Below are positions 5,572 through 64,000 of a DNA stretch of 64,000 bases, one piece after another. The stretch spans positions 153,076 through 217,075 of IMG/VR virus record IMGVR_UViG_3300032038_009890. One strand, 5' to 3'. Positions within the stretch are counted from its first letter, which is position 1. Each line of letters starts with the position of its first letter. The position numbers and the translations under genes were made by a program. Source of the stretch: a virus. Its lineage: Duplodnaviria > Caudoviricetes. The notes beneath the pieces are model-generated. The model was not told the origin of the DNA. It searched no databases and saw nothing but the letters and a program-made list of their open reading frames with translations.

Positions 5572-5609
5572 GTAAAGTGATGCAGATCAACTTGATTCGG
5601 AGGAAAGAT

Positions 5610-6236
5610 ATGAAGAAGAAAGCACTTAAAAGTGATGGTTTGATTATCTATAACAACTTTGGTGATCTTTATCCTGCAAACGTCTATGCAGAGAGTCCTA
5701 ATGCCGTGCAGACGGCGCCAGATGGCACCCGCCACCTCATGTATGGTTATTATGTTGTAGATACGCGCCACATTCTAGGCGGCGGGTTTAGACTGTGTGA
5801 AGCAAATAAGAACAACCCTGAAATAGAGCGAGAGCCTCGTCTTTATGACTCTGTTGCGGAAATTGAGGCCCTGCCTATGCTTTGTCCAGAAAGCGGCGAG
5901 TTTATTGGCTATAAGATAGTCTTTGTTGGCGAGCGTACGGGTGTATATGCCATTGCAAAGCTTCTTATTCCTGCTGATGCCAAGAGGACTAATGCCTACG
6001 GGCATACCCAGTGCCGTGCTGATAAGGTCAAGGTTCTGGATATCTATTCCTGTGGGCATCACTATAATGAGGGTCATAATTTGGGCCTTAACACGGCATC
6101 TGCTGAAACTACATATACTGTGGGCAAAATGGTCTATGCTAATGGGTTTTGCGGCGACAGGTGGAAGATCACGGAGCAGGGCATTCACTATTTTATGACT
6201 GAGAAAGATACTATGAGGTGGTGGGGAGATGAATAA
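5610..6236 (+). CDS. DUF5758-like protein (paralog 1)
   Basis: QCRADKVKVLDI..YTVGKMV..GIHYFMT; GGAGG SD before ATG at 5610. Confidence 0.7.
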   Translation: MKKKALKSDGLIIYNNFGDLYPANVYAESPNAVQTAPDGTRHLMYGYYVVDTRHILGGGFRLCEANKNNPEIEREPRLYDSVAEIEALPMLCPESGEFIGYKIVFVGERTGVYAIAKLLIPADAKRTNAYGHTQCRADKVKVLDIYSCGHHYNEGHNLGLNTASAETTYTVGKMVYANGFCGDRWKITEQGIHYFMTEKDTMRWWGDE

Positions 6237-13029: not shown

Positions 13030-16000
13030 GTGATTAATATAGGACTTTATGGGTGGTATATAAATATATACAAAGCGGCAACTGTAGTAGGAGTAATGCT
13101 TGGTGTAAGAGATGGTTATGATAGTACCAAGGCAATGTTTCATCATAGTTTGTTTTCTGATTGGTTACATGAGAATGGAATGAAAACAGACAAAAGAGAC
13201 GAATCTACACGTGATATTATTTGTATGGATTATCAATTTGGATTACGTAGCTACGAGGAAGAAAAGTCACATATAAAAGAACTTAGAAAAAAAGCCCAGA
13301 AGATTGAAAATGAAAATGAAAGGAATGAAAGACTAAATGTTATAAATGATATAGAATTAAAAATAGATAGTCGCAAAGATAATTACCATAAAATGAGCAA
13401 AGATGAAGTAAGAGAATACACTTATGTAAATGGTATTTATATTGATTATCCTCAATTTGATAAAAAGAAAAATATTATTGGTTATGAAAGAATTTACTAT
13501 AAATATTTATACCGAAATCCTTCTATGGCTAAAGTAGGAAAAAATATTTGGATTAATGCCGAATTATATGATAAAGCATATGAGCATATTACAATGGGTA
13601 TTGGTTCTAAAATGCCATTGCATAATGCAAAGATAACTGAAATAAGTGCCTACGCTTCTCTACTTGCTTCATCAATTGAAGGATCTATTGTGATACCGGT
13701 TGAGAACATTCTTATTCTTCAAGATGTAGATAGTTTTTATAAAACCGTAGCTGATGTAATTAGAACCGAAGAATATAAAGTGTACGAAGGTGCAAAGTAT
13801 GGATGTTTGTCCAACCTAGTAACAAAAAAGAAATGTGTGATTAGTAGAGAAGATACCGAGGTAATGAACGAACTTTTTGATGGACAGGCCTTGATAGAAA
13901 CGTCAATTACACCAGATTGGTGTAATGGAATGTTATTGCTTAGAAATCATTTTTTTAAAGCGTGTGCATTTAAAACTAAAATCCAATTATTTATAAAAGA
14001 GTATTGTGAAGAGCGTGGTATAGACTATGATACTTTTGAAGTAGAAGATATGTTTGGTCGTAAACTTGCAAAGAATATACAAATGATCACATCTAATAAT
14101 GCGATTAAGTATTTGAAGTTTAAAGACATACTTGGAGGTACTGCATTATCAGCATATGAATATTGGTGCAATTGGGTAAAAAATGATGGTGATATATTTG
14201 GAATAGTTAAAACAGATCATGTTTCACATTATGGCATACTCCAGAGGTGTAGTTATCAATTTCTAAACTCATTGCCAACAACAAAAAAAGATATGGAAGG
14301 TATAGTTGATACTACTATAAAGTATGTCGAAAATCTCAAAAAGGATACTAGCAGTTTTGTAGAGTACTTAAGACAAAATGCAAACTATGTAAATAGTTAC
14401 GAAATGCTTGCATCATTATATGAGTGGAATAATGGTATAGGTAGAACAAAATTATTTAAAACACAAAAAAGAAAAATAATAAATGAATATGTAAATGTTT
14501 TAAAAAAAGGAAAGATTTTACAATACGGAGATAATTTAACCGTATTGGGAAACCCATATGCAATGTTGTTATATGCTGTTGGAGAAAACTGGGAAAATGA
14601 CCCAACTCTTGGACCAGAAGAGGGTGTTATTCAAGTATATACAAAACGCTTTAATGACGGGGAATATTTATGTGGTATAAGGTCGCCACAGAATGGCCCA
14701 TCTAATTTGGGATATTTTCATAATGTTAGGCACCCGTTGATGGAGAAATATTTTGATTTTAGTCCCAACATTATGGCTGTGAACTGTATCCATACAGATG
14801 TACAGGCTAGGCAAAATGGTGAAGATTTTGACTCAGACTTTAATTTTGTAACTAATCAGCCAGAAATGGTGAAGGCTGTAAAGAAAGCTTATGAATTATA
14901 TCCTACTGTTGTAAATATGGTTCCAGAAAGCAGTACTTCGTATGATAACACAATGAAAGATTATGCCATAATGGATTCTAAGATGCAATCAGCGCAAAAG
15001 GCAATTGGTGGTGCGTCTGATACAGCACAACTAGCACTTAGTTATTATTATGATAGAATTGAGAAAGGAATTGATGATGAGGTAACGAAACAATTATATG
15101 AAAATGTTTGCATCCTTGCTGTGTTGGCTTAACTAAATGGGTCAGTTCTAGAGAAATCTAGTTCTAAAAATATTCGGTGAATTCTGGGAAGGTTTGAAAT
15201 TTATTACATTAGCAAGGAGAAAATAATGAATACTAACGATAGAACATTTACGTTATATATGATGACGTTTCCTGACAAAAAAGTTTATATTGGGATTACA
15301 AGTCAAAATCTATCTAGAAGATTTGGGTATAAAGGTTCTGCTTATAAAATGCAACCAGTATATGAAGCAATTCAGAAGTTTGGCTGGGATAATATTAAGA
15401 AAGAAGTAATTGAAGAAAATCTTAGTGTGGAAGAAGCTAAGAAAAAAGAGCAAGAATATATTGAATTGTATCAAAGTAAAAATGGCGTATACAATAAGTC
15501 AAAAGGAGGAGAATGTGGTTCTTTAATTACTGCAAAGTTTGAAGTGGACGGAGAAGTATATGATTCTCATGAATTAGCTGAAATGGCTTTGGCAGAAGGT
15601 GTTGATTATCATGATATTACTACAAGGATTAATCAGCATGGGTGGTCTTTAGAAAAAGCACTTACTAAAGAAAAGATGAAGAAAAATCAAAAAAGTGGAA
15701 TACAAAGGCAATTTGTATTCGTTTAATGAATTGATTCAATTTTCAACAGTAGATGGATTGACAGTAGATGATTTGTATACAAGAATTAATCACCATGGAT
15801 GGGATGTTGAAAGAGCTTTGACACAATCCAAAGATGTTAAACTTCAACCAAAAGGCGTTGGTGAAAGAAAATATTTCTATAATGGAAAATGGTGTAATTC
15901 ATACGATTTGTTTTTATTAAGGAAAGATGAACGTATTAAACAAAGCGATATTGTATCAAGAATAGAACGTTCAAAATGGGATATTGAAAAAGCAATATCA

Positions 16001-17059
16001 TACCCGCCCAAAAATATGAATAATAAATATATGTATAATGGGAAATATTATACATCTAAAGAATTAGAAGCGTTATGCCCAAATGGATTACAATATAATA
16101 CGATTGTATCTAGAATATAATCAGGATGGTCTGTTGAAGATGCCGTAAATCTTCCGGCGAATGAAAAACCTGACAAATTAAGTAAAAATTAATAATATTT
16201 ATCAAACTAACCCAGAGCCAAGATTGTGAAGTTGAAATGTAACAATAAGGCGTAGAGACTAGAAAGGTGACTAGACAAAGAATAATCCTTTCCACGAGTG
16301 CCGAACATCTAACCAGATAATGCTGAAGATGAAGATATAGTCCGATACTCCAGAGTATTTGGAGACGCCCAAGATAAAGAGCTTGGGATATAACATATGC
16401 AATTAGCAATAGATGGATGTAAAAAGATTTTTGATATAGATGTAAATGATGAAATAAAACGTATACGCGCGCAGGAATGTATGAATAGAGAGAAAGATTT
16501 TCCTAAGTTTATGGCGTATACGCATAAGATTCCTGTTACCAAAAATGGGAAAGATCGTCCTTATGAAGATATTCAAAAAGACAAAAAAAGAGTCCAAGAA
16601 AGAATAGATGAAACAATCGAATGCCCAATGAATTGGATGCATGATTGTTTAGATAAAATTCAAGGTGCTGAGCATGAAAGTAATATTGATACACTAGAAT
16701 TTTTAATTGATAAGCCAACAAAAAGAGTTGATCCTCGTCAAATGAATAAAGTAAGAGATATTATTGAAAAATATGATAGTCTTGTTAGGCATTATATTGC
16801 TACAAATAATAACGAAGATGACGGGATTGACGAAATTGATCAACTTCAAAAAGCGACGGATGAAGTAGTTGAAGCTGTTTCAAAGATAAAAATGTCCCAA
16901 GCAACTATGTTTAGATTAATTCAAACATGTTTAGGATATGAGGGACGTGTTAATAAGAATAAGTCATATAAGAATGCTACAAAATATGCAATTAGAACTA
17001 TGAATATTCTATATAAATCAAACCCGGAACGATTTTTATCATGTTTTAAAAAGGGATAA
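13030..17059 (+). CDS. yonO: YonO-type single-subunit DNA-dependent RNA polymerase; join(13030..15129,16400..17059)
   Basis: LFDGQALI, LRNHFFKAC, RSPQN, catalytic NGEDFDSD; spliced junction reads ILAVLA|QLAIDGCKK; SPbeta-like synteny with HU, YonK- and YonJ-like genes. Confidence 0.85.
15130..16399 (+). ncRNA. group I intron in the RNA polymerase gene (1270 nt)
   Basis: 5' splice site after U (TGGCT|TAA), P1 UGGCU/GGUCA with U-G pair, P7 GAGACTA/TAGTCC, terminal G (CATATG|CAA); removal restores the frame. Confidence 0.9.
15226..16193 (+). pseudogene. intron-encoded GIY-YIG homing endonuclease, apparently degenerate
   Basis: FTLY..KVYIGIT..RF motif; +1 frameshift in the A-run near 15690 and a premature TAA at 16118-16120, after which the RI..GWS.E.A repeat continues. 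Confidence 0.75.
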
Positions 17060-51330: not shown

Positions 51331-51361
51331 CTTAATATAAAATTTGAAAGGAGATGAAATT

Positions 51362-54300
51362 TTGTCTGATTTTATTGATCATATAAATAAAAACGAAACA
51401 AGATATGAATTAGTATCAAAACCGTTATTAGATATAATTGCAACTAGTTATACTGTTGGTAGTCCTTATTCAGTCGGAGAATACGTTATATATGATAATA
51501 AATTATATGTATGTATAGATGATGTAGTAGAAAATACGATCTGGGATGAGAATAAATGGCAAGAAACAAAACTGACTGATTATGCAAACATTCATGTTGA
51601 TGACACATTAAAAGTAAGAGGTAAGGCCGCAGATTCATATTCGGTAGGAAATGCAATTATATAGTTATATGAGAACTTTGATAATAAGTTTGACGAGTCT
51701 GATTCATGGAAAGAGCAAGGAAATACTGGACAAATATTAAGTAAGGGCGAAGATGGATTAGTATGGAAACATGAGATTATAGTCGATGAATCATTATCTA
51801 TTGAAGGATAGGCCGCAGATGCAAAAGCTGTTGGGGATGGAATAAATCGTATTATTAATAATCCCGCCTTATTCAATGGAGAAGAAACTAGATATAGAAC
51901 TATGGTCATAGACAATGCTATTAAGAGTGGGAATCCCGGGCAAATATTTACAAAAACAGCACGGAACACTTCGTATAATTATAAAATACATAATACTGAT
52001 TGTATTAGCGATTTAATGGTAATGACTAAAGAACCATATGAATTCGTGTATTAGATTCCGAACATTAGCGAGTATAACTTAATGTTTATTGAGTTTGAAA
52101 AGTTTGCCGCTGATTCTGGTTGGGTTGATGAGTTATTAAGTGCATTATCTATTTAGTTTTTCGACGAAAATGACGAATTAATTGCAGATACTAATAATAA
52201 TAACATTAAGCCGTTTTATGGATATCATGCTGTTACCGTTGATGATAATGGGGTGAGTATCGATCCTATAGATTCATGTTTGGTGGCTATGTTTGCGAAT
52301 AATGCCAGTTCAGACGAAGATGAATTTATTTCTATATTTGGGACATATAATTCATTGAGCGCAGTAAATTTAAATCAAGTATCCGAGGTTAATGAGCGCT
52401 ATCCAATAATTATTCCTAAGTATACAAGTAAAATTGTATTAACAAAATCAAATACACAAACAACTTCGTATGTTCGTGGGCACATTTGGATTATCGAACC
52501 TATTATAGATTATGCATGGGTGGATAATCCTCCTGTTGATGCTACGCTTACTCAAAGAAATCGCCCCGCCGATGCGAAAGCCGTGGGTAATGCGATATCA
52601 GATATTAATAATACAATTGAAAATACAGTAATAACATAGATAAATGAATCAAATGCTTGGCAGAAGCAAGGAACAGTAAACCAAATTTTATCCAAAACAG
52701 AAAATGGAATTGGTTGGGTAGACAATCCTCCTACTGATACAACGCTGTCACATTCTGGGTCTCCTGCCGATGCTAAAGAAGTTGGTGATAAGTTTGCGTC
52801 TCATGATGCAAGAATTAATCTAGCCGCAGGGGATGCCACAGAAGCTTTAAATGATGCCGCCACTTTGAAAGTCTAGGTAAAAGATCATTCGGAGTCGATG
52901 GATGATATAGAAACCCGTGTTGGAACAATGGAAACAAATTACGAAATGGTTCCGAATAATGCAATTCCTTATCCAGATGAAGGCGTGGTAAGATTTTATC
53001 ACGATGATATTGAATTGTTCTCTATACCAATGGGTGGCGGAGGCGGTGGCAGTAGTTCGGCAACAGTTATTATGACTTCAAAAATTACAAGCGGATGGGT
53101 AACAAAAAATAGCACATTAAAAGATATTCCTGTTACTTTTGAATGGTCATCAACTGAAGATGGTTTAGTTACTGGTCCCGGAAGTGTTACAGTGAGTACT
53201 AATGGCTATTCTCGCACTACACCAGTGGAACAAGGCCCTGCAACTGCTATTATTGAAAAAGCATGGCTTCATGTTGATAAAAATAATATTACTATTCTTA
53301 TATAGGATTCAATGGGAAATGTTAGAAGGCATCCATTAACCGTATTTGGTCAAGAGCTTTCTATCAGTTCCACATTAGACCCCAAAGACCCATTCTATGG
53401 AAATATTACTGTTGGATACACTCCAATTGGAAAGATGCCGAAAGTTATACATTTTGTTCTTGATGGAAAAGAATTGTCGACAGTAGAAACAGATTCTTCT
53501 GGAACAGCTATGGAATATGTTATTCCGCAACAGGCGGCAGGGACACATAGTTTGGAGATTTACGCCGTGGGGACCATAGGAGGAGAAGAAATTACATCAG
53601 ATCATCTATATTATGAATTAATGTGGTTAGATGAATTTAGTTCAAGACCGCTCATTACTATAACTCATAAAGGCGGAGACATTGGACAGTTCTATCCTGT
53701 GAATATTCCATGGCGTGTATATACTCCAAATGTTGCAACTACAAATGTAACCATTTCTGTTAATGGCGTTGTTGTTCAAGAATTATAGGATGTGGATCGT
53801 AGTGAACAAACATTTAATTATGTGTTTGAGAATTATAATGATCCAAACGATGAAAATGATGTTACTGTGGTCTCGTTCTTTGCTGAAGGTATGGTAGAAG
53901 CTAAGAGCATAACATTTAAAGTTGCTATTTCAGAAGTACAAGTAGAAGCAGAAACAGCAGGGCTAGAATTGTACCTAGATTCAAAGAGCCGATCTAATAG
54001 TGCGTCTGATTGGAACGTATGGGAATATAATGGTATTCGAGCTAATTTTGTTAACTTTTTAAGGTATTATGATGGATGGCAAACGGATGATGAAGGACAG
54101 GTCGTTTTGAGAGTAAAAGGTGATGCCCGTGTCAATATTCCTTATATGCCATTCTCAAATTCATTCCTTAGTACTGGGCGGACTATCTCTATTGAATTTA
54201 CAAGTAGAGACGTTTTTAATTACGAAGCTCCTATAATTACATGTATGTCTGGCGGAAAAGGTTTTTCAATCACGCCGAATATGATGTCGTTTAATACAGG

Positions 54301-57300
54301 TACAGAGGTATGGCAAAGGTATAATGAAAATACTCATATAAGGGCCGATTTTGTATTTGACGCTGATACTGTTAGGCCATTCTCTGATGCTGAACCAGAA
54401 AGATTAATTAAGCTATTTATTAATGGTGTATGGTCTAGGACATTAAGATATAAGCCTAGTGAAGTTACAAATCAGACCACTCCTGTCGGCATTTCAATTG
54501 GTGCAACTGGGGCAACAGTTGATATTTATTGTATAAGAATATATAATCGTTCACTTACAGATAGACAAATAGAAAAGAATTGGATTGCTGATACTCGTGA
54601 CCCTGTGTTGAGAACAGAAAGATACTACGCTTGCAATATATTTGATAGCCATGGTGATATAACTCCAGAATCTTTGAATGATGACACAACATATACAATT
54701 ATGACCATTCCTGATATTCCACCAGATAAGGATACAAAAAAGTACGGAACAATAGAACATATTAATCCACAAAAGCCAACACTAAATGTTACGATGAATA
54801 ATGTGGAAATGGCGGCGCAAGGAACTTCGTCTATGGCTTATCCGACAAAGAATATTTCCGCTAAAGCAAAAGAAAAAAATAGTATATTTGTTGCCGGGTC
54901 TAGTACAGGAGTAAGTGAATACGCATTGTCAGATAATTCTATACCATATAAATCATGGGTATTTAAAGTTGATATGGCTTCTTCTGAGGGCACAAATAAT
55001 GTTATGGGGGTTGAGCTATATAATAGATTTTGTCCGTACAAAACAAGAGAGATGAAACAAGATTCAAGAATTAGATGGGGTATTGAAGGTTATCCAACTG
55101 TTTTATTCTATAGGAACTCAGAAACAAATGTTATAGAGTTTTATTCTAAAGCAAACTTTAATCTTCCAAAACGTGCGCCCGGCCCCTATGGATACCCGGA
55201 TGATGATGATCAGCTTGAAAATTCTGATATTCCTAGTCGGCTTGAGTCATGGGAAGTTCAAACAAATAATACTCGTGGCGTAAAATTCTAGGGAGCAGAA
55301 GCATTTACAAGTGAGGAATGGAAAAAAGATTTTGAAGCACGAATTCCTGATGATTATTTTATAAAAGACAAGATTCAATATTTAGTAGAAAGAATATCTG
55401 CTACATATAGAGAGGATGCAACAGGAAATTAGTTATCATCTCCTGTAACTTATATTATTGATAATCGTGCGCCTTTAACAGTATATTCGCAAACAGAAGG
55501 TAAATTTACATTTACCGAGAATAATGGAAAGTATACTGTAATATGTACACATGATACTGCGGCAAAGAGATTAATATAGTTTAGAGCGGAATTCCCTGAA
55601 TATGCTCAACTTAATGCGTGGTGTTTTTATTATATACTTACATACTATCTATTAGGAACAGATTCGTATGCAAAAAACTTATTTATAGGTTTTCGTGGAG
55701 ATGATGTTCAAGATGCAGAGATTATGCGATATTTTAAAAGAAAAGCTGTTCCAGAGCCTTATGATATGGATACTATTCTTGGCATTAATAACTCTGGATT
55801 CCTTACATATAGTCCGTTTTTAACAGATACTGATAGAGTAGAATCAAATATATCTGGTGGAGAAGCCGATGCGGATGGTAAAACTAATGTATGGCAAGCA
55901 CAGGATGCAACAATTATGAATAATATTCGTGATGCATTTCCAGATATTTGTCGTTAGGTTTTAGTAGATGCTTTTGCGGCAGGACTCACAGCAGACTTTA
56001 TTATAAATCTATTTAGAAATCATAGAAAAATATGGTCACCTGCCATTTATAACTATGATCAGTTTAAAAAATATGTTACTCCTGCGCTAAAACCATTAAC
56101 GTATAATTCTACTACTGGAAAGATGGAGCCTGATGAAAGTTATTTAAATATGTTGTAGGGCAGTAAAGATAGTCAAATGGAATGGTTTGTTAGGAACCGT
56201 ACAAGCTTTGTTCATTCGCAATATGCTATGGGCGAAGCAAATAATAACTTTATTCGTATGCGTATTTATAATGAAGCAACATTTGATATTCATTACATAA
56301 AACCAATTTTCGGAGCTATGAGATTTGGCGAAGGTGGAGAAAACATTATTAAGCGAGTTCCACAAGATTTATCTCCAGTTCGGTTTGAGTATAAGCCCGG
56401 AACGACTGTTAATAACTTTGAAATCCGTATATTATCTTCTCATCTAATTAGTGAAATAGAGGGTATTGCCGACACATTACCAAATGAAGTAAACCTTTCT
56501 TACGCATCAAGTCTTGTAAAATTAATTCTTGGTGGAGATACTGTTAATAATAATTTGAATACGTTAACAGTAAAGAATCTTCCATTTCTTCAACAAATAG
56601 AAGTTAGGAATTGTCCTAACTTAAAGACCGACATTGATTTGGAGAATTCAACAGATCTTAGGATAGCAAAATTTGATGGGTCTGGTGTTACTGAAGTGCG
56701 TATAGGAGAAGGTTGTGCAATTGAAACATTAGTTCTTCCAAGTAGTATTACACATTTAGTCCTTAGATATTTACCCAAATTGTAGAACTTTACTATTAGT
56801 TCTTGGGATAACATTGAAGTATTTATGTTGGCAGGAGTTGATGCTTCTATTATAGACCCAATTGAATCTGTATCGAATATTAATGCGGGAGCATTTATAA
56901 ATATTGAAGGATTCGAAGTTAGTATGGATAGCGTGCAAGATATTATTGACTTTTATGAAAATCTTAACACTATGCATGGAGTTACTAGACAGAGGGAAGA
57001 AAATACATGGAAACCCAATTTTGAAGAAGAAGACCCGGAGACTGGGCAAATGAGATTTCTTCCCGCACAAGTGAGTGGAATTATTCATCTTGATAGTATT
57101 TCTGGTGATGAACTTGCAACGCTTGATTCTTATAATTATACAAATATTAGAATAGACGCTCTTCATACAACAAGTTATAGATATTTCAAGACTTACGACG
57201 GAAAATCTTTAATAGAACGAATTAGCTGTTCGGACGGTGTTCAAGAAACTAGTGCGCCAAGTATACCGACAAGAACATCCACAGCAGAATACGATTATAC

Positions 57301-58192
57301 TCCAATTGGATGGAGTACATATATGGACAGTGATAATGCAAATGTTGATTTGGATGCAATAACCATGACAAACGTTACATATTATGCTGCATATTCAAGG
57401 AAGAAAAGACAATATACTGTAACATTCAGAAACAAAGGAACTGTGATTCAGCAAAGTAAGTGGGATTATGGTGTAATACCTATATATAGTGGAGCTACGC
57501 CGACTTCTGGAGATCAAACATCAACTGGGTGGAACAAACCAATAGTAGCCGTTACAGGTGATACGACATATGATGCCGCTTATAAGCCATTATATACTGC
57601 TACATTTGTTACTTCATCTGTATACGGTGGAAGGCAATTATATGTTGGACAATTTGAAGAAGGAAGCACCCCTGTCTATAGAGGAGAGGAATTATCTGGG
57701 AATGATCAGTATGATTTTATGGGATTCTCACCAGAAATTACTCCTATATATAAGAATACAACATATACTGCTATATTTGTTGATAAACGTTCTATTGTCA
57801 TACAGTATATTGCAGGAACAATTTCTCAGTATAATTCGACTTCAACAAATAAAATAGGTGAGTATGCATTTAATAACAGAACTGCTTTAACATCGGTAAC
57901 GACATCTTCGAATACAATTGAGCAATATACATTCGCAGGATGTACAAGTCTTAATACTGTAGACTTGAAATCTACATTCAGTGTAACAATTGACGCAAAC
58001 GCCTTCAATGGGTGTACAAATCTTAATACATTATTTATTAGAAGTACGACAATGGCGACTCTTTCTAATACAAATGCATTTACAGGAACGAAGATTGCAA
58101 GCAAAGAAGGATCAATCTATGTCCCATCTGGAATGGCTTCAATTTATTTAGCTAATTCTTTGTGGGCAAATTATGATATTAAAGAATATTGA
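51362..58192 (+). CDS. giant (~2276 aa) tail fibre/virion protein: DAKAVG fibre repeats, Ig/LamG-like, CotH-kinase-like, LRR and BspA-type domains; TAG=Gln
   Basis: Eight track ORFs share one frame and are separated only by TAG (at least 12); QGTSSMAYPTKN, DSYAKN, PYDMDTILGINNSG. Confidence 0.8.
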
Positions 58193-58209
58193 TAAAAAGG
58201 AGGTAACCA

Positions 58210-59487
58210 ATGGCAAATACAAGAGATTCATTGGGTGAACAGAATACATTAGATGGATTAGTAAATCACTCTATTACTAGTTTTGAAGAGGACGGAGTTA
58301 CTACATTAACCACTAATGCTTTAGCACATCAAACACAATTAACATCTGTAAAATTTCCAAATTTGATAAGTACTGGAAATAATGCTTTTCAATATGATAC
58401 TGGATTACAGCATATTACAGAAGACCAGTTTCCAAATTTAAATACAATTGGTACGTCTGCATTTGCGAATTGTACAGGACTTGTGGACGCTAAGTTTCCT
58501 AGTGTCACAACTGTAAGTAATAATGCTTTCAATGGATGTACAAATTTGGAAACATTTGAAACTGGCGTGAATAAAGTAGCATTTACTACGCCATTCACAG
58601 GATGTTCTAAGTTGGAGAATTTGATAATTAATAGTACTCAAATGTCAACTTTAAATAGTGCAACAGGACTTTCTGGAACAGCTATTGCAAATTACAAAGG
58701 GGCTGTGTATGTACCAGACGAGCTTGTTGCAACATATAAAGCAAATGCGAATTGGAAGCCGTATTTTGTTTTTTCTAAAAATGATTATCCCGTATCGTCA
58801 TATCCTGACCCTGCGGATTTTGCAGGAACTGGGACAATAACCGACACATGGGCAGAGATTGTAGCGAATGAGAATTATGCTACAGACTATGCGATTGGCG
58901 CAACGAAGTCTGTATATCTGTCTGGATTTGGTATGTTTAATATGGAACTCGTTGCAAAGGATACGGATATTCGTGCTGACGGAGATGAGACTAAAAATAA
59001 TGGTAAGGCTCGAATGACTTGGATTATGAAAGAATTGTTTACTACGCATAATATGAATTCAACTTCTACGAATGCTAATGGATGGCCCGCAACTGCTATG
59101 AGAAGTTGGTTAAGGGGCACTATTTTACCGTTATTCCCAGAAGTTGTGCGAAACAATATAGTTGAAGTCACTAAGACATATTATAATTATACGACAAAAA
59201 CTACTCTTTCAACTCCAGATACAATTTGGATTCCTTCGTTAAGAGAAATATTTAATGGAAGTGGTGGATATACAGAAGAAGATTCTGGTGTAACCTATGT
59301 ATCCGCATCTAAGTTTAATAATGATACAAATCGAAAGAAATATCTGAATGGAAGCGCTTACTACTGGTGGTCTCGTTCAGCTAGTTCTGGCTACTCCAGC
59401 CGTTTCGTGTGCGTCCGTAGCAGCGGCGGCGCCTACTACAGCCGTGCCAACGACACCTCTGGGGTTGCGCCCGGCTTCTGCCTCTAA
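58210..59487 (+). CDS. DGR target protein: BspA-type LRR plus C-terminal C-type-lectin-fold domain (probable receptor-binding/adhesion protein)
   Basis: AF.GCT.L repeats; GWPATAMRSWL, IWIPSLREI, YWWSRS..GVAPGFCL; carries the VR. Confidence 0.88.
   Translation: MANTRDSLGEQNTLDGLVNHSITSFEEDGVTTLTTNALAHQTQLTSVKFPNLISTGNNAFQYDTGLQHITEDQFPNLNTIGTSAFANCTGLVDAKFPSVTTVSNNAFNGCTNLETFETGVNKVAFTTPFTGCSKLENLIINSTQMSTLNSATGLSGTAIANYKGAVYVPDELVATYKANANWKPYFVFSKNDYPVSSYPDPADFAGTGTITDTWAEIVANENYATDYAIGATKSVYLSGFGMFNMELVAKDTDIRADGDETKNNGKARMTWIMKELFTTHNMNSTSTNANGWPATAMRSWLRGTILPLFPEVVRNNIVEVTKTYYNYTTKTTLSTPDTIWIPSLREIFNGSGGYTEEDSGVTYVSASKFNNDTNRKKYLNGSAYYWWSRSASSGYSSRFVCVRSSGGAYYSRANDTSGVAPGFCL
59354..59478 (+). 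repeat. DGR variable repeat (VR), 125 nt
   Basis: Colinear with the spliced TR; 23 mismatches, all at TR adenines. Confidence 0.95.
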
Positions 59488-59505
59488 TAAGGGGCGAAAA
59501 TATAA

Positions 59506-59541
59506 GGAATCCAGTGGCCTACTTTATGGCCACTGGATTCC
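59506..59541. promoter_or_regulatory. DGR target-recognition hairpin downstream of VR
   Basis: GGAATCCAGTGGCC-N8-GGCCACTGGATTCC, perfect 14 bp. Confidence 0.8.
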
Positions 59542-59562
59542 GTTAGATAAGGAGGAAGCAAA

Positions 59563-59742
59563 GTGGAAGAATGCAAACATACTTGGGTGCATATTCGTGC
59601 TGTAGAGGGCGACAGACCTTATGATTTATATCTACCATATAATGGCGAATAGTATTCTTTTAAGTGTATATGCCAATAGTGTGGTAAGATATTTGATTTT
59701 GATGAATATTTTGATAATTATGTAGAAATAGAAAAAATTTAA
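59563..59742 (+). CDS. small Zn-ribbon protein, TAG=Gln
   Basis: AAGGAGG SD, GTG start, CKH..CQ(Q)CG. Confidence 0.55.
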
Positions 59743-59756
59743 AGAAAGGAGAAAAA

Positions 59757-60248
59757 ATGCCATCTAGGAACTCTATATTATTAGAAGAAAAGAAGCGAAA
59801 TTCTTTTGCCCCTGTTGATTTGTCTTTAAAATTATTAAGAAAAACAAGAGAAATAGTTGCTTTGAAAATGCCAAAGAAATATACATTTTATGACGGAGCC
59901 GTATTATTTAATTATGCATTTAAAGTATGTGCTTACGCTAGAGAAGCAAATTCTATTTTTATAAGTAAAGATTCATTTTCAGTCAAAGAAGCTAAACAAA
60001 GGATTAAACTTTGGAAGAAAGCCCGGCGTAAATTACAGGTGGTTCGTACTGAAATAGATGTTATTCTGGATCTTATGGGAAAAGAAACCTTGTCTAGGAA
60101 AGACCAAGAAACTGGTTAGACAAGAAGTATTTCTCTTCATGATATAGAAGAAACATTGGATTTAATTATAAAAGAACAAGAAGAATTAACAAATACAATC
60201 AATAGAGAAAAGAAATAGTTAATACAGCAAGTTGAAACAAGCAAATAA
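59757..60248 (+). CDS. avd: DGR accessory variability determinant (Avd-like four-helix protein), two TAG
   Basis: Basic helical protein PKKYTF..ANSIF..R..A..L; located between target and TR. Confidence 0.75.
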
Positions 60249-60281
60249 TAATATAGAATAAATACAGGTTATTCGCTGATT

Positions 60282-60633
60282 GCGCTAACAACTGGTGGTC
60301 TCGTTCAGCTAATTCTGGCAACTCCAACAATTAAATTAGTTGCCTTTTATGGAAACATAAAAGTGAAAATTGGGCAATATCGGTAAAAATCTCTAGTAGA
60401 TAATACCGAGATAAAATTTATCGTAACGCATAGAAATTGAAATAATATTTCCACGAGTGCCCGACTTCTTAATAGGTAATGCTAAAGAAGAAAATATATG
60501 CTGAACTTGTTGGTAACAGCAAGAAGTAGAGACAAAAAGCTCTACGATAACAAAATTGTTCATGTACGTCAATAGCAACGGCAACGCCAACAACAACAAT
60601 GCCAACAACACCAATGGGGTTGCGCCCGGATTC
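60282..60633 (+). repeat. DGR template repeat (TR), split: 60282..60331 and 60559..60633
   Basis: AAC/AAT-rich; 50+75 nt match VR end to end. Confidence 0.95.
60332..60558 (+). ncRNA. group I intron inside the DGR TR (227 nt, no ORF)
   Basis: P1 CAAU|UA..UA-GUUG with U-G pair, P2 TTTTATG-GAAA-CATAAAA, P3 TGGGCA/TGCCCG, P4 TCGGTA/TACCGA, P7 ACGCATA/TATGCT, P9 CTTGTTG-GTAA-CAGCAAG, terminal G. Confidence 0.88.
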
Positions 60634-60961
60634 AGAGTCTCGGCAGTCATGTGACAAAGTAGGTGACGAAATCGGTATGACTTAGAAGGAGCGGATGACC
60701 TTCCGATTATGGTAAATAAGCAAGAGATGCTGTATGCTATGCATATCTAAGCTCTCGTTCTCTGATACATTTAGGCGGATGACGCTTCTTGCATGGATGT
60801 TGAAAACTGAAATATACGAAATTAACGATATTTTGGTAATCATTAAGAGAGTGGGTATCCTCTCCATTTTCATGGCTAAATGTTATGCGACTAGAAATGA
60901 TACCAAGACGCAAGTCAAATAAAAAGGATAATAATGTCGTACAGAGTGCATCGATATTCTA

Positions 60962-62209
60962 ATGAATAGTAAATAGAGACATGAAATTAGATTTTAGAGA
61001 AGAAAAGCAGAACGTGAAAAGAAAGTTAAGTAGCGTTCTGATGAATATTCTGAGTGGGAGAATGTTTTTGGTTTGGTCCCGCTCGTAAAAGCATATAAGG
61101 ATACAAGTAAGGCTTCACGGAAATATACGAAGACATAGATATGGATGTCAAGTTTGCTTGTAAATAGTAGAGAAATATAGTGTTAGTTAAGAGATGATAA
61201 ATGGAAGTCAAAAGGTTTTAATAAGTTTGATATAATGGAGCGAGGTAAGTTACGACATATTGCTTCTGTACATATATCTGAGAAAGGTATTTAGAATACA
61301 TTATCTAATAACTATTTGATTCCAATTCTTGGGCCGCATTTGATTTATGATAATGGCGCAAGTATGAAAAATAAAGGCACTGATTTTGCTCTAAATAGGT
61401 TTACTAAGCATTTACATGAACACTATAGAAAATATGGGCGAAATGGATGGATTTATTTCTTTGATTTCAGTAGCTATTTTATGAATATAGATATCGACAT
61501 TTTGCTGAATAATGCACAAAGATATATCCATGATGAGAGATTGTTTAATCTATACAAATAGTTAATCAGTAATTACACAGATGGTGGGTTGAATCTAGGA
61601 AGTCAAGTATCTCAAATTAGTGCTGTATTCTATCCTACTCCCTTAGACCATTTGATTAAAGATTAGCTTGGTGTAAAGGGTTATGGGAGATATATGGATG
61701 ATGGATATGTTATATGCGATGATTTGCAGAGGCTAAAGGAAATAGTTCGATTATTTGAAGGAAAATGTGCGGAATTAGGTATAGTGCTGAACAAAAAGAA
61801 ATGTCAGTATATTAAAATGAATAAGTAGTTTGTATTTCTAAAGACAAGATTCTTCATTACTGAAAATGGAAAAGTGGTAAGACGTATAAATAGGCCCGTT
61901 GCTAGAAAAGAAAGATAGCGTCTTAAATCATTTAAGAAGTTTTATAAACTTGGATTGATGAATAAGAGAGAAGTGTATTTAAATTTTCATTCTTGGTTAT
62001 TTTCGTTGAATCGTGGTAAAAATTTTCATTTAAGGAACAATATGATAAAGTATTATAATATATTGTTTGATGAATTTGAGAATTATGTTCCTACTTATGT
62101 CAAAAGTAGGAAGTAGAAGCAATTATTGTATCTTGCAAAAATTAATTAGACGCGTAGAAATTATATCTATATTAATTGTGATTCATCTTGTGATATAATT
62201 GCGGCATAA
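60962..62209 (+). CDS. DGR reverse transcriptase (~415 aa, about 13 in-frame TAG)
   Basis: ERGKLRHI, IYDNGAS..KG, FDFSSYF..I, GLNLGSQVSQ, YGRYMDDG, LNKKK, FVFLK. Confidence 0.92.
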
Positions 62210-62239
62210 ATTTAACATAATTTTGAAAGGAGGTAGAAA

Positions 62240-64000
62240 ATGCCAGACGAAATATATATAAAACACTTATTTGGTAACAAAGTGGATCTTCCAGAAGTAA
62301 AAAGCGGACAAATCCTTTATGTAGAAGATACTCGTTCTATATTTGCTGATCAAAATAATTAGCGTATACGTTATAATCCACCTGCGAATTGGAATGAGAC
62401 AAATATTGAAGATCCTTCGTATATTGAGAACAAACCAGAACTTGGTACTGTTTCATCACAAGACTTAGCTTCTACGGTTAATGATTCTTAGAAAATTCCG
62501 AATATATCTTTAGTAAATTCAATTGTCTCCTCTGGTTTAAATGACAGTGTTAAATATGAAAATCAAATTAAATCAGATGGCGAAAAGCTTTAGGCCAGAT
62601 CGAATATTGGAGCAGCGGCCAGTTCTGATTTATAGATAACGAATTAGAATGTATCATCTTTATAGTTGGACTTTGAAAATGCGGAAAGATGGAAATCTGA
62701 AGGCGAAGAAGGAAATGTTTTGTCTAAAGATGAAAATGGTGATTTGGTATGGGTCCCTATCGAAAATCAATTAACAAATATTGAAGAACGATTAGAGAAC
62801 ATCAATAAACGTGTAAATTTAAATAGTTTGAGAATTTATCCAATTGATAAGTCAATGATTTGGTTGGAAAATACTGGCTCTTCTATTGATATTATTTCTC
62901 TGATTACAAATGCTGATGATGACACTAATGTTAGAATTACTAATTTTGATAATACTGTAAGTACCACCCAGGAGATCGAAACATTTTATGCTAAATTAGA
63001 TACTATGAATGGGATAAGTACGCAAGGAACGTTGGTAGAAGACGAACCACAAATATCTGGTATTATTAGAATTGAATCCATTAATGGGAGTACCAAAGAG
63101 GTGCTTGATTAGAAGTATAGTAATATTTAGATAATTTCTGATAATATCACAGCTGTAGTAACATTTATGTCAGAGGACGGGCTTTCTACAATAGGATCTG
63201 TGAACTATAATAATGGAATTGCGCAAACAAATCTTCCCGCTCCGGTGAAAGAATCTACGAATACTTAGACTTATTCACTTGATGGTTGGAATACATCTTA
63301 GGGTCAATCGGTTGTTACATTTACGAATGATACTGAAGTATTAAAAGATATGACCGTATATCCTGTATTTACAGAACATGTAAGAATGTATAATGCTTTC
63401 TTTATTAGATCGGCAGAAGATGGCGGCGGAACACTTTAGACTGTTCAAGTTGAGTACGGGGGAACACCTGAATATACAGGTGCTACGCCAACTACTATAC
63501 AAGGTACTTATGAGGAATTTGAGTTTGTTAATTTCACACCTGAGATTGGGCCAATTTATGAGGACACAACATATACAGCGAACTTTAGAGAAAGAATCCC
63601 TGTTGTTACAAATTATTTGACAAATACTCTGACAGATTATAAAAGTAAGACGAATACTGTAATTCGTGAATATGCTTTCCAAGGAAGGACTGCACTTAAA
63701 ACGGTAACCGGGCCAATGATAACTATTGAACAATATGCATTTTCTGGTTGCACTGGACTTACGTTGGTTGACCTTAACAGTAATTCTGGTAGCATTATTA
63801 TTGCGGCTAATGCGTTTAATGGATGTACAAATCTCGAAACATTCTATATTAGAAGTTCTGTTATGGCGACACTATCAGCCACTAGCGCATTTACTGGAAC
63901 TAAGATTGCAAGTAAGACTGGTACGATATATGTTCCTGAAAGTTTGGTAGAGACTTATCAAGCAAATGCAAATTGGGCAAACTATAATATTGCGGCAATT
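62240..64000 (+). CDS. tail fibre-like protein with BspA-type LRR, TAG=Gln, truncated by the window edge
   Basis: AAAGGAGG SD; NWNE..DPSYIENKP, (Q)ARSNIGA; C-terminal part paralogous to the end of 51362..58192. Confidence 0.75.

Follow-up and report, generated by a model that had tools for sequence, protein, structure and literature searches.

A phage DGR whose template repeat appears to be split by a compact group I intron

A gut-type phage with a TAG-recoded genome of 217 kb carries a DGR whose template repeat (TR) lies in two pieces, and the 227 nt that separate them are, judged by sequence and predicted structure, a genuine group I intron. We consider it likely that a complete phage DGR acquired a compact, ORF-less group I intron in its TR, precisely between the codons AAT and TTC, and that splicing restores the template. 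The template probably must be spliced before it is copied into the gene of a tail protein. Positions (Table 1) are those of the window, i.e., the whole stretch of 64,000 nt that was analysed.

Table 1. Features of the DGR cassette and predicted helices of the putative intron
Feature	Position	Strand	Remarks
Target gene, 425 aa, no TAG	58210..59487	+	ORF; Pfam LRR_5 51.8 bits, DUF6273 62.7 bits; homologues
VR	59354..59478	+	Final 42 codons of target gene; gapless against joined TR
Perfect 14-bp inverted repeat, 8-nt loop	59506..59541		Starts 19 nt past target stop codon
Avd-like accessory gene, 163 aa, 2 in-frame TAG read as Q	59757..60248	+	Between target and TR
TR exon 1 (5' piece, 50 nt)	60282..60331	+	Last codon AAT; match to VR
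Putative compact ORF-less group I intron, 227 nt	60332..60558	+	After U60331, terminal G60558; Rfam, family profile, covariation, empty site
P1	60328-33/60337-42	+	U60331.G60339
P2	60344-51/60356-63	+	GAAA loop
P3	60370-75/60459-64	+	Intron helix
P4	60380-85/60404-09	+	Intron helix
P5	60389-92/60398-401	+	Intron helix
P6	60410-14/60418-22	+	Intron helix
P7	60426+60428-32/60497-502	+	Bulged C60427
P7.1	60433-37/60447-51	+	Intron helix
P8	60465-70/60485-90	+	Intron helix
P8a	60473-75/60482-84	+	Intron helix
P9	60506-12/60517-23	+	GUAA loop
P9.1	60526-31/60540-45	+	Intron helix
TR exon 2 (3' piece, 75 nt)	60559..60633	+	First codon TTC; match to VR
RT-2 RNA (RF03077), structured spacer RNA	60645..60969	+	66.7 bits vs gathering 40, full model
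DGR reverse transcriptase (RT), 415 aa, 13 in-frame TAG read as Q	60962..62209	+	RVT_1 61.8 bits

The TR is not a single contiguous repeat colinear with VR; only when its two pieces are joined does it give the 125 nt that match VR without a gap. Both the split and the mismatch count of a preliminary description of this DNA were borne out when we realigned the pieces and recounted: there are 23 mismatches, every one at a TR adenine, and there are no differences at any other base. As adenines make up 38 of the 125 TR bases, such a distribution would arise by chance with a probability of about 2e-15 (hypergeometric). The changes fall at 7 of the 13 adenines upstream of the junction and at 16 of the 25 downstream, an equal density on either side (Fisher p=0.73). 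An independent diagonal scan that tolerated changes at A recovered exactly the two TR segments (about 55 and 78 nt) and nothing else within 8 kb, and there is one VR in the whole 217-kb genome. VR thus matches the exon-joined TR alone and not the intron-containing TR, and since it lacks the intron and yet is mutated at A on both sides of the junction, the genome records a contiguous TR RNA as the template. The junction, which corresponds to 59403|59404 in VR, is ambiguous by 1 nt (a T), an ambiguity resolved by the terminal G conserved in the intron family. It lies in codon phase 0, so that the first triplet of the intron, TAA, is in frame with VR; an unspliced cDNA would indeed carry the in-frame stop codon that had been predicted for it.

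The DGR is otherwise complete: it has an RT with the YMDD motif, a protein with the Avd fold, an RT-2 RNA and a hairpin after VR. The target is an LRR/DUF6273 tail protein, with BspA-type LRR_5 repeats in its N-terminal part and a C-terminal DUF6273 domain that holds VR. The inverted repeat behind the target gene is a candidate for the DGR target-recognition hairpin and/or a terminator; a recognition role for such a hairpin after VR was reportedly set out by Guo et al. in 2011, the work from which we take it here, and a GC-rich hairpin also follows VR in related DGRs. The Avd-like protein had no direct sequence-family match in Pfam, NCBIfam, PHROGs or the PDB, and it can be aligned with the corresponding ORFs in 14 related DGRs. 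Its predicted structure (pLDDT 87) best matched PDB entry 2gsc (TM 0.80-0.83, target-normalised) and gave a TM of 0.76-0.77 (target-normalised) against the Avd chains of the BPP-1 DGR RNP (8ub7), with weak E-values of 0.006-0.5 for these matches, so the modelled protein resembles the four-helix bundle of Avd by fold only. In this DGR clade, the RT-2 RNA is the spacer that separates TR from RT, and it is conserved at related loci. The RT also contains LGxxxSQ, a hallmark motif of DGRs, and 15 codons (TAG) are recoded in the RT and Avd-like genes combined. A promoter scan gave TTGAAA-16-TAGAAT at 60232-60259, directly before TR, a candidate only, as the number of sites found equals the shuffled expectation.

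The preliminary description had named P1 (with a U-G pair at the splice site), P2 with its GAAA loop, P3, P4, P7 with its bulge and P9 with its GUAA loop; all of these are present in our model of the insert, to which P5, P6, P7.1, P8/P8a and P9.1 can be added. In P1, the wobble pair U60331.G60339 would be flanked by C60328-G60342, A60329-U60341 and A60330-U60340 on one side and by U60332-A60338 and A60333-U60337 on the other. A search of the insert with group I covariance models had also been called for, and it gave a match to Rfam RF00028 that covers the full model, with P1 starting on the exon boundary (32.1 bits, with an E of 1e-6 when 291 nt were searched). This score does not reach the gathering score of 50 bits, and a search over 3.5 kb did not detect the intron, which was found only in the 291-nt search; L128, a member of the same intron family, scores 66.9 bits against RF00028, above the gathering score. 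An nhmmer profile of 18 phage introns, built with the TR intron left out, matched it with an E of 1.9e-30 and from end to end (positions 3-230 of 231). In an alignment of 19 sequences, 93.3% of the cells were paired, compared with 33-45% when the partners were slid, and 35 of 54 pairs showed compensatory changes, a count reached by 0 of 500 shuffles. These changes included 5/6 pairs of P3, 4/4 of P7.1, 9/9 of P8 and 6/6 of P9.1, as well as an A-U/G-C switch beside the P7 bulge. The catalytic core, made up of the P3-P8 pseudoknot, the P4-P6 domain and the bulged, guanosine-binding P7, is in place. It is undegenerated, with 71 of 71 family-invariant columns retained, and the intron departs from its family only at a single base of J3/4, in the P9.1 loop and in having no P6 extension. 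By these comparisons, the intron belongs to an abundant, IA-like phage family with a P7.1 helix. It is the shortest member of that family seen, with minimal P5, P6 and P7.1 and a P10 of 1-2 bp at most, so that splicing may be inefficient or depend on a cofactor. Its G60558 ends the 3' tail conserved in the family, and the boundary is fixed by comparison with an empty site.

This empty site was provided by L180, the nearest relative of the DGR, whose RT is 75% identical and whose TR is contiguous. In the L180 TR, the 12 nt that precede the insertion point and the 3 nt that follow it are the same, and nothing is duplicated there. TR exon 1 is also homologous to the contiguous TRs of L181, L182, L163, L164 and L008, as it is to that of L180. 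The survey of related phage DGRs that the preliminary description had proposed drew on 59 RT-related IMG/VR loci; the RT relatives, at 30-75% identity, were all in VR/TR cassettes, and no second split TR was found among the approximately 48 loci with a readable TR, all of which were contiguous. This points to a gain of the intron within this lineage, which is what one would expect if the element is selfish.

The split arrangement was seen in one genome only, represented by two assemblies that do not differ over the 8,278 nt compared and may both derive from one sample; in the second, the contig measures 223.6 kb and has the locus in its middle part. The phage is represented once in a collection of 15 billion proteins, no near-identical genome was found in the protein or contig collections searched, and an exact 24-mer of the TR/spacer junction had no match in IMG/VR. 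A search with the target protein found no relative above 61% identity, and the two closest contigs stop short of TR. Where members of the intron family, surveyed across at least 100 loci, lie in coding genes, they have the layout of the TR intron: the U that ends the 5' exon is followed after 6-12 nt by the guide G and then by a P2 hairpin (mostly with a GAAA loop); the guides change along with their exons, and the exons join in frame. The 3' half of the TR intron is 75-84% identical to the tape-measure introns of Clostridioides phage phiCD211 and Streptococcus phage phiJH1301-1. The same phage holds further group I introns, including a sister copy in nrdD that carries an endonuclease ORF. None of about 110 sampled copies among the matches listed lay inside a TR, and when the intron core was sought by pattern at 84-204 nt upstream of an RT-2 box, there were 12 matches, none in a DGR.

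We envisage that a TR-spacer precursor RNA would be transcribed with the intron included and that the intron would then excise itself by the usual guanosine-initiated two-step reaction. For P1, the last four bases of TR exon 1 would pair with the guide at 60339-60342, and G60558 would serve as the terminal G. Splicing would yield a contiguous TR RNA of 125 nt, which RT-Avd would copy with adenine-specific errors into a cDNA that replaces VR. We infer that splicing continues and that the DGR has been functional after acquiring the intron. Most simply, the intron is a selfish element that invaded this lineage and is tolerated since the template is restored by splicing, and not a selected regulator; relatives work without it, and it is therefore not needed. 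As to how it arrived, reverse splicing into the TR RNA followed by copying by the DGR RT was ruled out, as the family-invariant adenines are all intact: the intron is 42% A, and by contrast more than half of the template adenines are changed in VR.

The mutation pattern of VR could, on the other hand, predate the insertion. A recent selfish insertion would then have crippled or shortened the DGR: VR would have been written earlier, and at present cDNA would either fail to integrate or diversify no more than the 75 nt downstream of the intron, given that its synthesis begins 3' of TR and that it can integrate by homology inside TR exon 2. In favour of this, the intron is confined to its lineage and missing from a 75%-identical relative, it is the smallest of its family with a weak P10, and the lack of any non-A difference between TR and VR would be expected of a recent event no less than of ongoing activity. 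However, the core matches the consensus perfectly, which speaks for ongoing selection or for an arrival only very recently, and not for decay; the RT, the Avd-like protein and the RT-2 RNA remain intact although 15 codons are recoded; and essential genes (tape measure, nrdD) harbour introns of this family, which must splice there. Taken together, we regard a crippled DGR as possible and rather unlikely. Much more doubtful still is an assembly artefact, or an insertion in TR of some other kind such as a MITE or IS remnant: the sequence is metagenome-derived and possibly from a single sample, but its boundaries are exactly U|...G, its guide is complementary to the TR exon, its homology to the intron family runs from end to end, and the second assembly carries the identical sequence well inside its contig. 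A MITE or IS origin was itself ruled out by the absence of a target-site duplication relative to the empty site, and we give these explanations almost no credence.

The preliminary description had also raised splicing as a gate on receptor diversification, a suggestion that found no support beyond the necessity of splicing itself. In such a scheme, the efficiency of splicing would be selected to limit or time diversification, possibly in concert with further introns of this phage and with its amber-recoded late genes. Homing over the full 125 nt does logically need a spliced RNA, the phage has further group I introns, and the RT and Avd genes depend on TAG suppression; against this, the arrangement is not conserved (the TRs of the roughly 48 readable relatives are contiguous), neither the family copies among the matches listed nor the pattern matches near RT-2 boxes provided another case in a TR, and selection cannot be shown by a single occurrence. 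A selected gate is thus very unlikely. In its most explicit form, a kind of “ribozyme-gated hypermutation,” the intron would be more than a passenger: rate-limiting splicing of TR, along with the other introns and the TAG-recoded RT and Avd genes, would couple receptor diversification to the late physiological state of the phage, with spliced RNA alone giving integrable cDNA and unspliced RNA acting as a sink, and this, too, we hold to be improbable. A selfish, lineage-specific insertion is the more parsimonious reading of the two.

The split TR is a single case, and one that is mechanistically expected. It shows that group I introns can colonise the non-coding template of a retroelement, a new home in which what is needed is that an RNA be restored and not that a protein be made. 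As the A-tolerant scan sees two segments, DGR-finding programs that look for a single uninterrupted repeat may cut such TRs short, and the number of templates split by introns could be underestimated. The split TR also offers a natural construct for probing the effects of RNA processing on mutagenic homing.

Among the closest known systems are the gut-phage DGRs with LRR_5/DUF6273 targets and an RT-2 RNA (L007-L065, L163, L164, L180-L183), which share the gene order, a homologous TR, the spacer RNA, the Avd-like protein and the RT (at most 75% identical); unlike the intron-bearing cassette, all have a contiguous TR. The intron itself compares with the IA-type phage introns (T4 td, nrdB and nrdD; Twort; the tape-measure introns of phiCD211 and phiJH1301-1), which have the same P3-P9 core with P7.1 between P7 and P3', a conserved J8/7, P7 and 3' tail, and a U.G pair at the 5' splice site. 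It differs from them in its home, which is a non-coding retroelement template and not a protein or tRNA gene, in lacking an ORF and in being the shortest seen (227 nt). A Bordetella phage BPP-1 DGR with the T4 td intron engineered into its TR is reportedly the subject of a 2008 Mol Cell paper by Guo et al. Full-text literature searches found no natural DGR with an intron-split TR; an engineered one, with the td intron in the BPP-1 TR, is well known (PMC5703328). That td group I intron is spliced, and the spliced RNA gives rise to A-mutagenised cDNA (Naorem et al., 2017, PMC5703328). The BPP-1 td-intron DGR shares the parts of the cassette (a target with VR, Avd, TR, spacer RNA and RT); its intron was inserted by experimenters as a tag and its splicing was demonstrated, whereas the intron here is natural, is predicted to splice, is of a different family and resides in a TAG-recoded phage of 217 kb. 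The TR intron would be the first natural counterpart of the td-tagging experiment that proved the flow of DGR information through RNA.

The DGR template repeat (TR) of this phage lies in two pieces which, once joined, make 125 nt that aligned without gaps to the variable repeat (VR) in a scripted comparison. The TR base is an adenine at all 23 mismatches (p ~2e-15 by chance, given 38 adenines in the TR), and an independent gapless scan of 56-64 kb that permitted mismatches at TR adenines alone returned the same two segments and none besides; together these bear out the split TR of the preliminary description. An A-tolerant gapless scan of the 217-kb genome gave no second VR. On the 5' side of the junction 7 of 13 adenines are changed, and on the 3' side 16 of 25 (Fisher p=0.73), indicating equal mutagenesis of both sides. 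The insertion point falls between the VR-frame codons AAT and TTC, so the insert's first triplet, TAA, is in frame; a single T can be assigned to either side of the junction, and the terminal G of the intron family fixes the insert at the position in the table.

Features of the DGR cassette and its neighborhood (window positions)
Feature	Position	Description
LRR-bearing structural protein	51344-58192	2282 aa; 14 in-frame TAG
DGR target gene		LRR_5 and DUF6273; downstream of the structural protein; zero in-frame TAG
VR	59354-59478	In target gene
Inverted repeat	59506-59541	Perfect, 14 bp, 8-nt loop; just 3' of the VR-bearing gene
Avd-like ORF	59757-60248	No recognisable sequence family; aligns with equivalent ORFs of related cassettes; 2 in-frame TAG
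TR exon 1	60282-60331	
Insert (group I intron)	60332-60558	
TR exon 2	60559-60633	
RT-2 RNA	Between TR and RT	RF03077, 66.7 bits
RT	60962-62209	RVT_1, YMDD, LGxxxSQ motif; open only with 13 TAG codons as amino acid
Next LRR gene	62240-64000	11 in-frame TAG

Searching with the RT protein, TAG read as Q, uncovered relatives much closer than those from IMG/VR. The best of them (L180, RT 75% identical) comes from another TAG-recoded phage, on a contig of 24 kb. Its TR is clearly homologous and contiguous, agrees with the present one at the 12 bases preceding the insertion point and at the 3 following it, and has no duplication; the TR also runs uninterrupted across this point in the related gut-phage loci L181, L182, L163, L164 and L008. 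This marks the intron as a precise insertion specific to its lineage, with boundaries fixed by the empty-site comparison independently of any fold. Its entry into the TR via the DGR's own RT is ruled out, since its many invariant adenines are untouched.

The insert had been described as a group I intron, and several lines of evidence uphold this. An Rfam search of a 3.5-kb stretch gave no match at the insert; in a search of 291 nt, RF00028 aligned over its entire length, with P1 starting on the exon boundary, and scored 32.1 bits (E 1e-6), short of the gathering score (50). The 3' half of the insert shares 75-84% identity with gaps left unannotated in phage genomes; in Streptococcus phage phiJH1301-1 one of them divides the tape-measure gene into two halves, and in Clostridioides phage phiCD211 another adjoins a group I intron that is annotated. 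A two-block pattern made from the intron core matched at least 96 IMG/VR contigs. The insert, the shortest member of this family, aligns colinearly with it from P3 through the last base, and a profile HMM built from 18 relatives, with the insert left out, recovered it from the whole genome at E 1.9e-30 (model positions 3-230 of 231). One member, L128, exceeds the Rfam threshold (66.9 bits).

When the structure of the insert was projected onto a 19-sequence alignment, 93.3% of cells formed pairs, vs 33-45% with partners slid by 1-3 columns; both sides had changed in 35 of 54 pairs, and none of 500 shuffles reached the observed values. Covariation is seen in P3, P7.1, P8, P9 and P9.1, and the P7 pair adjoining the bulged base is A-U in some sequences and G-C in others. 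Every family-invariant base is present; the insert departs from the family only in lacking the P6 extension, in the P9.1 loop and at a single base of J3/4. Family introns in coding genes share the insert's layout: after the exon U come 6-12 nt, then a guide sequence beginning with G, and then a P2 hairpin, capped in most members by a GAAA loop. In these introns the guide sequence varies with the exon, and exon joining leaves the reading frame open. Judged by its sequence, the insert is a true group I intron whose structure is intact. Its P7.1 helix sits between P7 and P3', an arrangement that we take to denote the IA-type phage introns of the Michel-Westhof scheme. In an unconstrained fold, the end of TR exon 1 (60326-60332) pairs with the intron 3' end and the start of TR exon 2 (60553-60560), bringing the splice sites together; the conserved 3' tail of the intron is similar to its own guide sequence.

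This phage also carries a sister intron of the same family in nrdD (anaerobic ribonucleotide reductase; G000:C1:64582-64798 (-) in its genome, L002:1440-1760; nhmmer E 2e-31), with a 275-aa endonuclease ORF (phrog_4645). A more distant group I intron at 16087-16364, flanked by ORFs 15695-16120 and 16397-17059, scores 30.2 bits with RF00028 and matches the family profile across the 3' half (E 1e-7). Tandem introns occur in phiCD211-like phages and on two IMG/VR contigs (L004:2340-2912, L070:1668-2217, L075:1845-2443), where a family intron and another, different group I intron above the Rfam threshold lie within ~20-90 nt of each other, with a very short exon between.

The rest of the cassette looks free of visible decay in its sequence. 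For the Avd-like ORF, the predicted structure (pLDDT 87) is closest to 2gsc and to the Avd chains in 8ub7, the DGR ribonucleoprotein of Bordetella phage BPP-1, and related cassettes have a GC-rich hairpin at the equivalent place after the VR. The phage translates TAG as an amino acid across 51344-64000, and the closest relatives (L162, L167, L180, L181) are likewise marked as translatable only if TAG=Q. In the related DGR L164 (target 52% identical), one TR (2615-2741) serves two VRs (1929-2055 and 5600-5726), in two target genes on either side of the cassette.

The VR lacks the intron and has adenine-derived changes on both sides of the junction, so it was written from contiguous TR RNA; either this RNA was spliced, or the VR would have been written before the intron arrived. 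The most likely reading is that the intron splices out of the TR RNA, which would then serve, contiguous, as template for the VR. Most likely, too, the intron is capable of splicing, a prediction favored by its consensus-perfect core, a guide sequence that fits the TR exon and the presence of family relatives in genes needing splicing (tape measure, nrdD), as well as by the engineered T4 td intron in the BPP-1 TR, which is spliced to give an RNA that templates A-mutagenised cDNA (PMC5703328). Caution comes from the minimal intron periphery and the weak P10. Were there no splicing, cDNA starting 3' of the TR could integrate by homology inside TR exon 2, and VR variation would then be expected only downstream of 59403|59404. 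The phage turned up once in the collections searched, besides a second assembly that shows no differences across the 8,278 nt that were compared.

The further proposal that splicing acts as a gate on receptor diversification found no support: the TR is contiguous in the related DGR loci where it is readable (about 48), the intron family does not lie in a TR in any of the roughly 110 copies sampled, and two IMG/VR scans for the core of the intron 5' of an RT-2 box returned no other case. Nothing supports selection for the arrangement, and a selfish intron at a site where excision would restore function is the parsimonious reading of these sequences.

The intron-split TR is a singleton whose mechanism is the expected one, and such a TR may be a blind spot for DGR finders. 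Full-text literature searches and a large DGR survey (PMC5758913) yielded no natural intron in a TR, in agreement with the preliminary description; the only case was the engineered one. In the BPP-1 td experiment the intron was placed in the TR by experimenters, and this phage is a natural replay of that classic experiment.
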